Positions 1 to 7,858 of a stretch of DNA of 7,858 nt are shown in pieces (position 1 is the stretch's first letter; each line of letters begins with the position of its first letter). Source of the stretch: a virus. Its lineage: Duplodnaviria; Heunggongvirae; Uroviricota; Caudoviricetes. A program made the position numbers and the translations under genes. Under the pieces are notes generated by a model, which saw only the letters and a list, made by a program, of their open reading frames with translations, had not been told where the DNA came from and made no database searches. Location of the stretch: positions 1-7,858 of IMG/VR virus record IMGVR_UViG_2850808358_000013. The stretch is one strand, 5' to 3'.

Positions 1-939
1 TTATTTGATTTCAATTTTGTCCCACTCCCTGCCTCTGTCATCACGATACTGTGATGCCATGGTGTCCGACTTGTGCCCGAGAAGATGTTGAGCAAACTTA
101 TCGCTTATCTGCTTCTCATAGAGTCTTGCAGACAAACTGCGCAACTCGTGAAAGGTAGGTGGATCCCCTTCGAAGGAAAGACCTGATGCTTTTCGTGCGC
201 GCATAAAATACCTTGATACTGTGCCGGATGAAAGCGGTTCACGACGAGTAGATGCAATTATGGTTTCTCCGCCAAGAATCTCTTTGCATTTATCAAGTGT
301 TTCCTTCATTGATATCCCGAGAGCATCAACATGCAATGTTGTAGGGATGGCAATTTTTACGCCTGTTTTGCTTTGCTCGACATAAAGATATCCATCTACG
401 ATATCAGACCACTTCATTTCGCATAAATCACCAACTCGTTGCCCGGTAACAACAGCCAGTTCCATTGCAAGTCTGAGCCAACATGGTGATGATTCTGCTG
501 CTTGATAAATTTTCAGGTATTCGTCAGCCGTAAGTCTTGATCTCCTTACCTCTGATTTTGCTGCGCGAGTGGCAGCGACCGGGTTTGTTGTTATATGGCC
601 TTCAGCTATTGCCTCTCGGAATGCATCGCTCAGTGTTGATCTGATTAACTTGGCTGATGCCGCCTTGCCCTCGTCTATGTATCCATTGAGCATTGCCGCA
701 ATTTCTTTTGTGGTGATGTCTTCAAGTGGAGCATCAGGCAGCCCCCTCCTTATTGCTTTAATTTTGCTCATGTAATTTATGAGTGTCTTCTGCTTGATTC
801 CTCTGCTGGCGAGGATTTTTTCGTAGCGAGCAAGCCATGAATGTAACGTAACAGAATTATCACTGTTGATTCTCGCTGTCAGAGGCTTGTGTTTGTGTCC
901 TGAAAATAACTCAATGTTGGCCTGTATAGCTTCAGTGAT
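1..939 (-). pseudogene. int: Lambda-type tyrosine integrase (Int), 5'-truncated remnant; the longest ATG-initiated ORF is 1..771
   Basis: Minus-strand translation ends ...HLLGHKSDTMASQYRDDRGREWDKIEIK with the stop at 1-3, which I recognise as the C-terminus of phage lambda Int; the catalytic signatures HELR, LLGH and SQY are present. My manual translation upstream of the M at 771 continues in frame (..ITEAIQANIELFSGHKHKPLTARINSDNSVTLHSWLARYEKILASRGIKQKTLINYMSKI..) up to 939, where the frame enters the IS terminus and meets a stop (955-957). About 37 N-terminal codons and the start codon are missing. Confidence 0.9.
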
Positions 940-3161: not shown

Positions 3162-3800
3162 TTAAAGATTAACGTTGAAACCAAAGCGGGAAGACTTTTC
3201 CGATGTGCGGGAAATATCCAGCAATTTACGGCGCATTTCTTCCGTCAGATGCTTGAAGGCGTTAAATTCGGCGACAGCCGCATCGACGTTATAGCCGTTA
3301 CGACGTAATTCATTAAATATGCGCATTGCAGGGCTTGGCATGTCGAATAAGACGGAGGTATCAAGCTGCAATGTATTTCTATCAACATAGTTCATCGTGG
3401 CATAGGGGTGATGCTCTGAAAACCACGATAAAGGGAAATTGATATTCATCGCAGGAGAAGACAGGGCCAGTTGTTTCTGTTCCCATAGTTGTTTTTCCAT
3501 GCGATCGAATTCAGCAATGTAGGCTTCCTTGAATGCAGCTGCTTTTTTGCCGGTGAAGCCCATCACCAGAAAAACGAAGCCGTTTTTGGTGATTTGGTAG
3601 GCGTTATAGGTATTGCCTCGGTGTTCGAATTTAACCCGCGAAAAGTTGCGGGTTAAGAATTGCTCAGAGCATTCGAGGGATTCTATTTTCTGAACAACAT
3701 GGTGATGCTGCTTGCCAAAAAACTCAGCAATCGAAATAGAAGTAGTGACGGCGCGACCATTTTCGATGGTTACGTCAGGGTGAGAAAGGGTAGTAGCCAT
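3162..3800 (-). CDS. rha: Rha-family phage regulatory protein (pRha domain; antirepressor-like)
   Basis: N-terminus MATTLSHPDVTIENGRAVTTSISIAEFFGKQHHHVVQKIESL...YQITKNGFVFLVMGFTGKKAAAFKEAYIAEFDRME matches the pRha N-terminal domain as I remember it. Start chosen at ATG 3800 (GAGGA 7 nt upstream) rather than the track's 3959; the 53-codon in-frame extension is GC-rich and low-complexity. Confidence 0.8.
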   Translation of the reverse strand: MATTLSHPDVTIENGRAVTTSISIAEFFGKQHHHVVQKIESLECSEQFLTRNFSRVKFEHRGNTYNAYQITKNGFVFLVMGFTGKKAAAFKEAYIAEFDRMEKQLWEQKQLALSSPAMNINFPLSWFSEHHPYATMNYVDRNTLQLDTSVLFDMPSPAMRIFNELRRNGYNVDAAVAEFNAFKHLTEEMRRKLLDISRTSEKSSRFGFNVNL

Positions 3801-3830
3801 AATGACATCCTCAAGTGATAAGTTAATTAA

Positions 3831-3937
3831 CTCACCACCAGAGGTGCTAATCTCATGGGTGGTGAGACGCACAGGGTTAGCACTACCGGTCACTCGAGAA
3901 CCCGGCCAGCCTTGCGGCTGCCCCGCACGCCTCACCA
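3831..3937 (-). promoter_or_regulatory. Structured 5' leader of rha with three copies of a complementary motif allowing alternative hairpins
   Basis: Plus-strand ctcaccacc (3831-3839) and ggtggtgag (3858-3866) form a perfect 9-bp stem; a third copy ctcacca (3931-3937) can alternatively pair with the middle element. cagcc-ttgc-ggctg (3907-3920) is a GCAA (GNRA) tetraloop hairpin on the minus-strand RNA. Confidence 0.4.
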
Positions 3938-3961
3938 TAATTTGAATGTGGCTGTGCATTA

Positions 3962-4699: not shown

Positions 4700-4954
4700 G
4701 TGGGTATGGGGAAAGCAGATAAGCTACTGGAAAAGTTTTTAAACAGTAAAAAAACGTTTGAATGGGATGAGTTGGTCGTTTTGTTTTCCTCTCTGGGATA
4801 TGTCAAAAAGGAAATGCAGGGCTCAAGAGTGCGGTTTTTCAATGCTGAAATCAACCACACCATATTAATGCATCGCCCACATCCAGAAAGTTATATTAAA
4901 GGTGGAACGCTGAAAGCGATTAAACAGAATCTGAAAGAGGCTGGGGTATTATGA
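4700..4954 (+). CDS. hicA: HicA-family toxin-like protein (YcfA/HicA fold, putative mRNA interferase); initiation may be at ATG 4706
   Basis: ..KADKLLEKFLNSKKTFEWDELVVLFSSLGY..QGSRVRFFNAEINHTILMHRPHPESYIKGGTLKAIKQNLKEAGVL fits the HicA pattern as I remember it; the stop overlaps the next start (ATGA at 4951-4954). The track start is GTG 4700. Confidence 0.7.
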   Translation: MGMGKADKLLEKFLNSKKTFEWDELVVLFSSLGYVKKEMQGSRVRFFNAEINHTILMHRPHPESYIKGGTLKAIKQNLKEAGVL

Positions 4955-5295
4955 ATCATCTAAAATATAAAGGATATTTAGGTACAGTAGAACCAGATTT
5001 TGAAAATAATATCCTGTACGGAAAACTGGCGTTTATTCGAGACCTGGTAACTTATGAGGCTTCTACATTAGCTGAACTGGAACAGGAGTTTAAGACATCG
5101 GTTGAGCTGTATTTACAGTCTTGTGTGGAGGATGGAAAGGAGCCTGATACCCCGTTTAAAGGTGTGTTTAACGTCAGACTTGATCCAGAACTGCATCGTC
5201 GGGTCGCTGAAATGGCGATGGAAGAAGATTTATCACTGAACGCCTTTGTTAATAAGGCGCTGGAAAAAGAAGTCAACCATCACACAGGGGCTTAA
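4951..5295 (+). CDS. hicB: HicB-family antitoxin-like protein with a C-terminal ribbon-helix-helix DNA-binding domain
   Basis: N-terminal YKGYLGTVEPDFENNILYGKLAFIRDL..EEPDTPF resembles HicB N-domains; C-terminal KGVFNVRLDPELHRRVAEMAMEEDLSLNAFVNKALEKEV is RHH-like; 4-bp overlap with hicA. Confidence 0.7.
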   Translation: MNHLKYKGYLGTVEPDFENNILYGKLAFIRDLVTYEASTLAELEQEFKTSVELYLQSCVEDGKEPDTPFKGVFNVRLDPELHRRVAEMAMEEDLSLNAFVNKALEKEVNHHTGA

Positions 5296-5701: not shown

Positions 5702-6421
5702 TCAATCAAAAGTCTCATCATTCCACTGCGACTTTATGACCTTTCCGACAAACGGGCAGTTTTCGTTACACTCAATCATGTCGAATCGTGGGTTGAGTGG
5801 CTCCAGGTACGCTTTACCGCTCTCACGAATGAATCGTTTGAAGGTGAATTCATCGCCATTCATTCGGGCCACGCAAAAATCGCCATCCTCAATCTCCCGC
5901 TCAGGGTCAACGAGTATCAGCATCCCTTCGGGGAAACTGGGTTTACCACCCTGCGGCGCGGTCATTGAATGCCCCTTGACCTCCAGCCAGAACGACCTGT
6001 CACTGGCTTTTGTGGTGGTGGAGATCCACTTAATCGCATCCTTTGCGGTGTACGAAAAATCATCCATTGAGAAAGCTCCAGCCTGTACGCAGGAGAGTAA
6101 CGGATATTCGTAATATTTCTCGAACAGGTTACGCCTGTTTCCCGGTGTGTGGGTACGAATACTGCGTAACAAATCACTCAGATCTGGATTAATTTCTTCC
6201 GCAGGAACCTGTAATAAAGCCGCAAACTTAAGGGTATTTTCAGTATTTAACGCAATTTTTGCGTTCAATAACTGACTAACAGCCCCCTGCGTTTTGAAGC
6301 CGAGGATATCTGCGGCTTTTTCCTGGCTTAGGGATAGCTGTTTCCGTTTTTCATCCCAGATTTTGCGCAGTCGTTCAGCGTTCTGGATGTCTTTGTCAGT
6401 AATTGTAATTTTCTTCGTCAT
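5702..6421 (-). CDS. cI: Lambda cI-like prophage repressor (N-terminal HTH, C-terminal LexA/S24 autopeptidase domain)
   Basis: The C-terminal half is nearly colinear with lambda cI as I recall it (..[16 protein letters not shown].., ..[30 protein letters not shown].., ..[13 protein letters not shown].., ..[14 protein letters not shown]); Ala-Gly cleavage site, Ser (GHSM) and Lys (FKRF) all present. Start set at ATG 6421 (GGAGG 4 nt upstream) rather than the track's 6460. Confidence 0.9.
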
Positions 6422-6472
6422 AGTGCCTCCAATTTTATTAGCAACACAAATATTTATCAAATAGCTGGCCTG

Positions 6473-6500
6473 TTGACATTTAAATCAGGTAAGCTAATAT
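6473..6500 (+). promoter_or_regulatory. pR-like sigma70 promoter for the cro-like gene (TTGACA-16-TAATAT) in the divergent repressor/cro intergenic region
   Basis: ttgaca at 6473-6478 and taatat at 6495-6500; GGGAGG 6 nt before the ATG at 6527; the palindrome atttaaat lies in the spacer. The leftward repressor promoter and the operators were not resolved. Confidence 0.5.
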
Positions 6501-6526
6501 CGGAAAATTGAAATGGGAGGATCTCT

Positions 6527-6766
6527 ATGACTCTTGACGAGTACTTGAGACAAAGCTCTATCAGACAAGCCGATTTTGCGGCGATTGTTGGAGTTTCTCA
6601 GGGATTTGTCAGTGGGGTTATTACAGGGAGATACATGCCTCAGGGGCGGAAAGCCATTGAATGGGCAAAAGCTACAGACTGGAATGTAACTCCCCATGAA
6701 CTAAACCCGCATGACTACCTAAACATGGAAGATGGTATTCCGCTTCATGTAAGGCAAACAGCCTGA
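6527..6766 (+). CDS. Cro / YdaS-like small HTH regulator (79 aa)
   Basis: Divergent from the repressor gene with a strong SD; ..IRQADFAAIVGVSQGFVSGVITGRYMPQGRKAIEWAKATDWNVTPHELNPHDY fits the Cro/YdaS-type HTH pattern as I remember it. Confidence 0.7.
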   Translation: MTLDEYLRQSSIRQADFAAIVGVSQGFVSGVITGRYMPQGRKAIEWAKATDWNVTPHELNPHDYLNMEDGIPLHVRQTA

Positions 6767-6770
6767 TAAC

Positions 6771-6783
6771 CCTCCATCGGAGG
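6771..6783 (+). promoter_or_regulatory. Hairpin that pairs the Shine-Dalgarno sequence of the downstream ORF with an anti-SD
   Basis: cctcc-atc-ggagg: a perfect 5-bp stem whose 3' arm GGAGG is the SD located 5 nt upstream of the GTG start at 6789; it begins 5 nt after the cro-like stop. Confidence 0.4.
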
Positions 6784-6788
6784 TGTGA

Positions 6789-7070
6789 GTGAACAGGCAA
6801 ATCAAAACGGTTATGCCCGATCAGTACTGTGATGCTGATCGGGACTGGATACAGGAGCAATTGTTACAGCTAGACCCGACCACCAGGGTAAAAATTGCAG
6901 CAGAGTACGCGAGAGTGTACCAGGAAGAGTGGGACAAGGAGCCTGTATCGTTCAGGAAGGGCAACAGGGCAAGACGGAGCGCCAACACCCGGTTACGGGT
7001 GTATGTCCAGAAGTACGCGAGAGCCAGCCGTGGCTGGATGTTTTCGCCAGTAGCGATACGGAAGGAATAG
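6789..7070 (+). CDS. Hypothetical protein (93 aa; GTG start) in the position of cII / early-right genes; basic C-terminal half
   Basis: ORF directly downstream of the cro-like gene with GGAGG at -5; product ..DRDWIQEQLLQLDPTTRVKIAAEYARVYQEEWDKEP..RKGNRARRSANTRLRVYVQKYARASRGW..; no family recognised. An alternative ATG lies at 6813. Confidence 0.5.
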   Translation: MNRQIKTVMPDQYCDADRDWIQEQLLQLDPTTRVKIAAEYARVYQEEWDKEPVSFRKGNRARRSANTRLRVYVQKYARASRGWMFSPVAIRKE

Positions 7071-7096
7071 ATCTCATCAAGGTTATTATTTTTTTG

Positions 7097-7141
7097 TGAA
7101 ATGATTTCGCATGAAATCATTGCGCTTGAAATTTTACTAAG
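7097..7141. repeat. Three TGAAAT motifs at exact 15-bp spacing, with an embedded 9-bp inverted repeat
   Basis: TGAAAT at 7097, 7112 and 7127; units 1 and 2 match at 12 of 15 positions; inverted repeat aatgatttc (7100-7108) / gaaatcatt (7113-7121) with a 4-nt spacer; preceded by a T7 run and followed by tandem AAGGGGGT / AAGGGGGC (7142-7157). Confidence 0.45.
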
Positions 7142-7307
7142 AAGGGGGTAAGGGGGCAGATCTGTAACATCCGTGCCTGTAAGGGCACTACCAGAGGAAG
7201 GCAGCTCCATAGGTTAGGTAGATCACTGTATAGGGTGAGATGGTTTCTGACGAAATTGTTATTATGCTAACCATTACGGTAGAAATAGTACCATACTCAT
7301 CAAACAT

Positions 7308-7483
7308 GTGGTTATCAGCCTGCTCGGAAACAAATTCTACACCGGAAAAGACAAGGTCACGTTTGATTATGTGCTGGCTGCCAAATTGCGTGATGCCGGA
7401 CTGGCGATCGAACGTAATTATCTGGTTGATATGGCAACGGTAAGCGCGGATTCGTCGATATCATGGTCGTTGCCCCATCTGGT
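7308..7483 (+). pseudogene. Fragment of an unidentified gene, 3'-truncated by the IS911 insertion
   Basis: Protein-like frame ..GNKFYTGKDKVTFDYVLAAKLRDAGLAIERNYLVDMATVSADSSISWSLPHL runs straight into the IS terminus at 7484; the final residues and stop of the track ORF are encoded by the IS end. No convincing start or RBS (GTG at 7308 only). Confidence 0.35.

Positions 7484-7858
<375 letters not shown>

Follow-up and report, generated by a model that had tools for sequence, protein, structure and literature searches.

A predicted hairpin masking the ribosome-binding site behind a cro-like gene of an Eru1-type prophage as a possible, weak case of translational coupling

We analyzed a 7,858-nucleotide stretch of prophage DNA (hereafter, the window) in which the Shine-Dalgarno (SD) sequence of the first gene after cro can pair with a C-rich stretch that begins 5 nt past the cro stop codon. 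The palindrome is present as described, and its hairpin is at best a weak, allele-specific case of the well-known coupling of genes through masking of a ribosome-binding site (RBS), with nothing in it that is new in kind. We tentatively propose, at somewhat less than even confidence, that it would act as a modest damper on the downstream gene, with a partial dependence on translation of cro. The proposal starts from the sequence, the order of the genes, a probable start codon and predicted folding energies, and from these we infer an effect on expression.

The window is a decayed prophage whose repressor-cro-ORF block is 95–99% identical to that of Oslovirus/Sepvirinae Stx phages, including Lyz12581Vzw, TL-2011c, P13374 and PA2. 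Such phages are known as ‘Eru1’, a non-lambdoid kind of Stx phage without N, CII and CIII (PMC8044961), and the prophage of the window is Eru1-type and Stx-phage-like. On the left side of the window are an integrase gene (1–771, minus strand), an IS3-family element (orfA 1004–1306, orfB 1342–2160), a gene for a Rha/Ash regulator (3162–3959, minus strand) and the genes for HicA (4700–4954) and HicB (4951–5295). These are followed by an S24/HTH repressor gene (5702–6424, minus strand) with a divergent PRM-like site in front of it (6460–6432, minus strand). A PR-like sigma-70 promoter on the plus strand (6473–6500; TTGACA and TAATAT separated by 16 nt, 10 of 12 matches in a consensus scan) precedes the cro-like gene (6527–6766, plus strand), which we call allele A. 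Its 79-aa product matches Pfam HTH_3 (E = 1.5e-5) and the phrog_35 transcriptional repressor family (E = 5e-17), and its TGA stop codon (6764–6766) is followed by an in-frame TAA (6767–6769). When the early gene order of Eru1-type phages (S24 repressor, divergent cro, small ORF, DEAD helicase, primase) was compared with the window, the first three genes were present. The helicase and primase fall outside its contents: similarity ends near position 7195, and a second IS3-family orfA, preceded by unrelated DNA, starts at 7556.

The PR-like promoter would give one mRNA for cro and the co-oriented ORF behind it, and the terminator scan found no terminator-like site between the cro start at 6527 and the GTG at 6789. 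The two genes are closely spaced, as coupling on a shared mRNA demands, with a gap of 22 nt from the cro stop to the GTG. In the PR operon of phage lambda, cII likewise comes first behind cro, but nutR and tR1 lie between them, whereas in the window only 22 nt separate the two genes. A minus-strand ORF that overlaps the hairpin site (6672–6860) lies antisense to the last part of cro and the first part of the next ORF, and we took it to be spurious for that reason.

An earlier note on this DNA had described a CCTCC-ATC-GGAGG hairpin between the cro-like stop and a GTG start, set 5 nt from each, and the sequence bears this out. On the plus strand, the anti-SD arm CCUCC (6771–6775), the loop AUC (6776–6778), the SD GGAGG (6779–6783), the spacer TGTGA (6784–6788) and the GTG (6789–6791) follow one another directly, so that the stem begins four bases after the TGA (an offset of 5) and the SD ends five bases before the GTG. 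The RNAfold structure also has the pairs C6770–G6785 and A6769–U6786 around a bulged U, giving −7.6 to −8.0 kcal/mol for the extended form compared with −5.7 kcal/mol for the bare 13-mer. When the whole predicted PR transcript (6507–7100) was folded, the five stem pairs had probabilities of 0.97–0.98 and the SD was unpaired with a probability of 0.03 or less. A predicted outer helix joins GCCUG (6761–6765, plus strand), which overlaps the cro stop codon and is paired with a probability of about 0.93–1.0, to CAGGC in ORF codons 2–4 (6794–6798, plus strand; 0.95 or more), enclosing both the stop codon and the SD with its start. The predicted cost of opening on free RNA is 5.6–7.1 kcal/mol for the SD and 9.8–15 kcal/mol for the RBS, depending on the context folded. 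In silico, then, the SD and start of the downstream gene are occluded on free mRNA, as a coupling mechanism of this kind would need.

On an untranslated mRNA, the hairpin and the outer GCCUG/CAGGC helix would keep the RBS closed and damp independent entry of the 30S subunit. Ribosomes reading cro to the TGA at 6764 would cover or unwind the 5′ arms, and initiation at GTG 6789 would therefore partly follow cro translation, a mechanism that belongs to the ‘RNA unfolding’ type of translational coupling. By the general geometry and footprint size of the ribosome, the arm 6771–6775 is +11 to +15 from the P site when TGA 6764–6766 occupies the A site, a distance at which a terminating ribosome would keep the arm open. 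The 5′ arm is thus within reach of ribosomes on the upstream ORF, and a ribosome parked on the cro stop is predicted to lower the opening cost from 5.6 to 2.0–2.5 kcal/mol for the SD and from 9.8 to 5.2–6.1 kcal/mol for the RBS, a relief of 4–5 kcal/mol in the latter. Together with a hairpin probability of 0.97 or more, this relief makes the mechanism physically plausible.

Masking of an RBS by a structure that upstream translation relieves is an established coupling mechanism, with RNA-unfolding examples in the MS2 coat and lysis genes, E. coli rpmI-rplT, phage f1 genes VII-IX and atpH-atpA (PMC12548453). Like these systems, the window has its downstream RBS in a stem whose 5′ arm is reached by upstream ribosomes, with the predicted relief given above. 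They differ in that the established systems have reporter and mutational evidence and usually involve longer or conserved structures, whereas the predicted stem of the window has 5–7 bp, is not conserved across alleles and is statistically unremarkable. Two physical caveats also apply (PMC12548453): until the terminating ribosome leaves, no 30S subunit can bind an SD that lies 12 nt beyond the stop, and once it has left, a hairpin of 5 bp with a triloop would quickly refold. The claim that ribosomes terminating at cro melt the stem and so couple the two genes therefore holds as far as the geometry and the predicted relief are concerned, and is weakened by this steric caveat, by masking at the level of chance and by a common cro allele (allele B, described below) that lacks the arm. 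Coupling by termination and reinitiation was also considered; the two genes neither overlap nor nearly touch. Classic pairs of this kind overlap (PMC6728339, PMC10666635) and many distant relatives of the pair studied here lie at −4 to −38 nt, whereas the window has a gap of +22 nt; gaps of ~20 nt nearly abolished reinitiation by the same ribosome in E. coli test pairs (PMC10666635), which makes it unlikely here.

The reading that competes most directly with a modest damper, and that we consider possible though rather doubtful, is that the hairpin is fortuitous: a leader rich in C faces an SD rich in G by coincidence, and 30S subunits, through a strong GGAGG:16S duplex, start translation at GTG 6789 whether or not cro is read, with no regulatory consequence. 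Shuffle tests, none of them significant, favor it. When the 32-nt stretch was shuffled, 29 of 200 sequences folded as well as the observed one, and when the SD and everything downstream were held fixed and the 40 nt upstream were shuffled, 21% masked the SD equally or more strongly (7.11 kcal observed vs 5.48 ± 2.3 in the shuffles; z = 0.6 for opening of the whole RBS). Coupling energy, defined as the amount by which a ribosome footprint on the cro stop reduces the cost of opening the RBS relative to free RNA, was 4.84 kcal/mol in a 100-nt context; shuffles gave 2.36 ± 2.99 (p about 0.18). Overall, the shuffle p values ranged from 0.18 to 0.32, and neither stability, specificity nor conservation marked the hairpin out as a coupling element. 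Moreover, the SD is predicted to pair with the 16S 3′ end at −10.8 kcal/mol, beyond the −5.7 to −8 kcal/mol of the hairpin, which again fits initiation independent of cro.

The opening energy of the SD leans the other way. Against 145 candidate RBSs taken from 388 kb of related phage sequence, it ranks 8th, at about the 95th percentile, and opening of the whole RBS falls at the 80th–90th percentile. An exact CCTCC 3–10 nt upstream of a GGAGG-type RBS was found at one of 45 sites, that of the window itself, where base composition predicts roughly 0.5% per site. The arrangement is uncommon, not exceptional, because the earlier note had been made by scanning the whole window. Masking of the SD is indistinguishable from chance. 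The assertion that a precise post-transcriptional control can be read directly from the sequence fails on this result and on the absence of the arm from the majority cro allele.

That absence became apparent when relatives were compared: two unrelated cro alleles precede one and the same RBS and ORF. The HTH_3 protein, allele A, comes in two sub-variants, the window type and that of Lyz12581Vzw. TL-2011c, phi346, P13374 and others have allele B, a member of the lambda-Cro family (PF09048). Every E. coli-type relative has the identical SD GGAGG, and the anti-SD arm CCUCC was seen only with allele A. The two alleles converge exactly at ‘CCATCGGAGG’, a mosaic junction that assigns the two hairpin arms to different modules, and allele B reads ‘cacacagCCCATCGGAGG’ and hence lacks the anti-SD arm. 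Allele A accounts for 16 of ~157 chromosomal E. coli matches (allele B for ~90%), about 23 of 100 phage records and 2 of 12 metagenome matches (allele B for the other 10), and the metagenome scan with the RBS returned only alleles that were already known. A ribosome placed on the stop codon of allele B is predicted to free only 1–2.4 kcal/mol, and the opening energy of the RBS is similar in the two alleles, about 14–16 kcal/mol. Even within allele A, the hairpin varies: two substitutions in the Lyz12581Vzw type (U to C in the loop, which becomes ACC, and UGA to UGG) shift the register of the predicted fold to CACC/GGUG and ACCC/GGGU, leaving GGA in a loop, while GUCUG in Lyz12581Vzw retains the pairing of the outer helix via a G-U pair. 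All homologs of cro allele A are at least 96% identical and always lie upstream of the same ORF, with no homologs of intermediate identity among which covariation could show. On this distribution, the anti-SD arm comes with a rare cro allele and the hairpin is lineage-specific. The lack of the arm in most phages that share this RBS and gene, the junction that places the arms in different modules and the similar RBS opening in both alleles all add weight to a fortuitous origin.

Counterevidence to a fortuitous origin comes from Eru1-like prophages of Salmonella, whose leaders are homologous to that of the window from the ‘GCCTGA’ stop onward (alignment A2). Three such leaders (L131, L136 and L137) resemble the window in the gene family, in the ‘GCCTGA’ stop, in the C-rich pentamer opposite GGAGG and in the 5-nt distance from the SD to a GTG start, and the order S24 repressor, Cro-type gene, phrog_852 ORF, 123-aa ORF and DEAD helicase is shared. 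The Salmonella leaders differ in having an imperfect anti-SD, CCACC in place of CCUCC, and a strong helix that pairs the region of the stop codon directly with the start codon, whereas the window has only CCUCC/GGAGG and the 5-bp outer helix. In L131 this is a perfect 10-bp helix of CUGAACACGU (1171–1180) with ACGUGUUCAG (1199–1208), which connects the stop and the GUG start; in L137 a GCACC/GGUGC helix is added. Coupling energies were 9.85 kcal/mol in L131 (p about 0.003), 8.92 kcal/mol in L137 (reached in 0 of 300 shuffles) and 6.21 kcal/mol in the third leader (p about 0.11), and RBS opening in L131 had z = 6.3; two of the three leaders are thus non-random at p of 0.003 or less, compared with p of about 0.18 for the window. 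Non-random, stop-anchored occlusion of the RBS in Salmonella suggests selection on this type of leader, and both this occlusion and the C-rich pentamer that the window has in common with these leaders argue against mere coincidence. When viral contigs were scanned with a 14-mer of the Salmonella-type leader (CCACCAACAGGAGG), the matches lay in unrelated contigs, the 14-mer being too unspecific.

It is also conceivable, though we regard it as unlikely, that the hairpin is a post-stop ‘ribosome termination structure’, a damper or insulator that impedes both reinitiation and de novo initiation and so keeps the downstream protein low relative to Cro regardless of whether cro is translated. Chemla et al. 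reported that, with the upstream gene translated, structure right after a stop codon still lowers distal expression, and in their library of random 24-nt intergenic sequences more stable structures gave lower distal expression (bioRxiv 10.1101/2020.02.10.941153). The hairpin shares with such structures a stable local fold ~10 nt after a stop within an operon; its center lies about +11 nt after the stop, near the genome-wide energy minimum at +9 nt (bioRxiv 10.1101/2020.02.10.941153), and the weak GTG start codon would suit a design for low expression. Ribosome termination structures are, however, depleted at gaps under 25 nt (bioRxiv 10.1101/2020.02.10.941153), and the gap here is 22 nt. The statistical objections to a selected role hold here too, with the stability of the hairpin within the range of shuffles. 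The direction of the effect differs as well: termination structures insulate, whereas the earlier note had proposed activation across the 22-nt gap.

A stronger form of the coupling idea, which we judge improbable, is that the leader may be a selected, stop-codon-gated RBS switch common to Eru1-type Stx phages and their Salmonella relatives, tying the phrog_852 protein strictly to Cro translation, with the hairpin as its form in E. coli allele A. We compared 50 distinct contexts of the family and found the gene nearly always directly after a small upstream gene, usually of Cro type (lambda-Cro, HTH_3 or YdaS families), with an overlap of 4–38 nt or a gap of 30 nt or less. Most distant relatives overlap the two genes, with ATGA or GTGA in L006, L007 and L072. 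Close placement, which permits coupling, is therefore conserved, whereas the hairpin of the window is not. Sequestration of the RBS as a rule for the whole family was rejected: opening energies ranged from 0.3 to 9.8 kcal/mol, with z-scores scattered about 0 outside the Salmonella group.

[quoted passage not shown] The ORF matches phrog_852 over its full length (E = 9.7e-43; residues 2–92 on profile positions 4–94 of 98), and its 43 homologs share the invariant motifs WIQEQL and ANTRLR. The claim that GGAGG is the SD of this GTG is backed by three lines of evidence. Across 61 distinct contexts of the family, an in-frame ATG or GTG 21–39 nt upstream of a conserved Met is nearly universal, and in nearly all of them the good SD (−3 to −12.6 kcal/mol) sits at this upstream start and not at the conserved Met. 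The phrog_852 profile aligns already from residue 2 of the long form. Finally, the codons between the GTG and ATG 6813 differ from those of the 72%-identical Salmonella homolog (L131) mostly by synonymous or conservative changes (AGG/AGA, CAA/CAG, ATC/ATC, AAA/AGA, ACG/ACG and GTT/GTG). From these comparisons, the GTG is very probably a genuine start and GGAGG its genuine SD.

Public annotations (PGAP and PHANOTATE records) instead start the gene at the ATG of Met9 (6813–6815, plus strand), probably an internal methionine. Were this the true start, GGAGG, 30 nt upstream, could not be its SD and would serve no start codon, and the hairpin would have no bearing on translation of the ORF. Beyond the choice of both annotation programs, the homolog alignment lends this some support, with Met9 nearly invariant, Pro10 invariant and the preceding eight residues poorly conserved. 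The ATG has almost no SD (predicted energy −2.5 kcal/mol in the window and close to 0 in relatives), and all three lines of evidence above speak against it. We therefore consider a start at ATG 6813 very unlikely, with a small doubt about the GTG persisting because of the near-invariant Met9-Pro10, and conclude that the gene after cro has probably been annotated eight codons too short in public records.

The family phrog_852 is annotated as ‘unknown function’. An AlphaFold model of the downstream protein has three helices (pLDDT 74); the protein had no match in Pfam, NCBIfam or a PDB sequence search, and the model had no Foldseek match in the PDB with E under 0.8 and no recognized HTH match. 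Searches by structure and homology (Foldseek against the PDB and BFVD) returned only uncharacterized viral homologs. The label ‘CII transcriptional activator’ that one public record gives the protein is unsupported by any Pfam, NCBIfam, PDB or fold match. PMC8044961 and a second paper on Eru phages neither discuss the small ORF after cro nor describe experiments on it.

A DNA-level or other RNA element, such as a 13-bp palindromic protein site, a terminator, a nut/boxB-like site or an RNA thermometer, is suggested by the perfect 5-3-5 palindrome and is hardly credible, given that the window has no second copy of the site and no family of half-sites (4 matches at up to 3 mismatches against 1.45 expected, the others inside an IS), that the hairpin is followed by no T-run and passed over by the terminator scan, that Eru1 phages lack N (PMC8044961), that no Rfam family matched, and that the hairpin is predicted to stay closed from 25 to 60 °C.

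If the modest, partly cro-dependent damping that we propose is functional, the hairpin would be one more small example of RBS masking relieved by upstream translation. Its setting is the early operon of Eru1-type Stx phages, which are clinically relevant and whose early regulation has barely been studied. Should the leader instead be a selected switch, it would control a protein in the position of CII in phages that lack CII, CIII and N, and could help to set their unusual lysis-lysogeny behavior. The phrog_852 gene itself is a widespread, uncharacterized companion of diverse Cro-type genes, usually overlapping them or lying within about 30 nt. The Salmonella helix that joins stop to start would be a far better experimental model of coupling than the hairpin of the window, and the Salmonella leaders, along with the probable misannotation of the start codon, are more useful leads than the hairpin.

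Stop-gated translational coupling has a far better candidate in the leaders of Salmonella Eru1-like prophages than in the window, where CCUCC (6771–6775) pairs with the GGAGG Shine-Dalgarno (SD) sequence (6779–6783) of the phrog_852 gene that follows cro. In Salmonella enterica GCA_011267925.1 (locus L131, positions 1171–1208), the region of the Cro stop codon, CUGAACACGU, forms a perfect 10-bp helix with the region of the GUG start, ACGUGUUCAG. This stop-to-start helix encloses the SD of the homologous gene. Two further Salmonella loci, L136 and L137, have leaders of this kind, L137 making the occlusion another way, with GCACC/GGUGC. None of 400 upstream shuffles gave equally strong occlusion of the ribosome-binding site in the helix leader.

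The window's hairpin straddles a recombination junction. The boundary between two unrelated cro alleles, of the HTH_3 and the lambda-Cro (PF09048) type, is exactly at CCATCGGAGG (6775–6783 in the window and 3540–3552 in comparison locus L002). This position is within the hairpin's loop and SD, and the two arms are therefore parts of different mosaic modules. Downstream, public records place the start of the phrog_852 gene at ATG 6813 (PGAP in RefSeq; PHANOTATE/Pharokka in GenBank; window region 6789–6815), yet both the SD positions across the family and the synonymous differences between codons point to GTG 6789 as the start, which means that deposited proteins are probably eight residues short at the N-terminus.

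Other repeats lie within and beyond this gene. Just 3′ of Met9 is a perfect 9-bp inverted repeat, CCCGATCAG and CTGATCGGG separated by 10 nt (6816–6824 and 6835–6843), in which one mismatch (GAT to GAG, Asp to Glu) breaks pairing in most relatives. The 3′ end of the gene holds a terminator-like hairpin at 7024–7047, CCAGCCGTGGCTGG followed by ATGTTTTCGC, which could be a weak tR1-like site closing the cro-ORF unit; the T-run of relatives is weaker (ATGCTTTCGC). Thirty nucleotides past the stop codon, preceded by a T-run, comes a perfect AT-rich 9-bp palindrome, AATGATTTC and GAAATCATT with a 4-nt spacer (7100–7108 and 7113–7121). This palindrome could be a protein-binding or origin-related site, and Lyz12581Vzw and phi346 carry a different inverted repeat, TTAGTTG...CAACTAA, at this place.

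In the region 7060–7858 the encoded protein ends in ...AIRKE, as opposed to ...AVRKFPPTP in most phages, the match with intact Eru1 regions stops near 7195, and position 7556 marks the beginning of an IS3-family orfA; a second IS3-family element occupies 1004–2160. Because helicase and primase replication genes are absent from the window, the prophage looks defective. Just upstream of the repressor gene, a HicA toxin/HicB antitoxin pair (4700–5295) whose genes overlap by 4 nt is placed as in E. coli JNEC-KY204, whereas Oslovirus phages have a restriction-methylase pair at this position.

Many genomes carry an uncharacterised phrog_852 gene as the first one behind cro (family loci L004–L118; in the window the two genes together span 6527–7070). 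The genes that precede it in Enterobacterales are Cro-type but not homologous to one another (lambda-Cro, HTH_3 and YdaS-like), and it usually overlaps them by 4–38 nt; tblastn found weaker homologs of the phrog_852 gene in Vibrio phages. Its product may act jointly with Cro or have a CII-like role.
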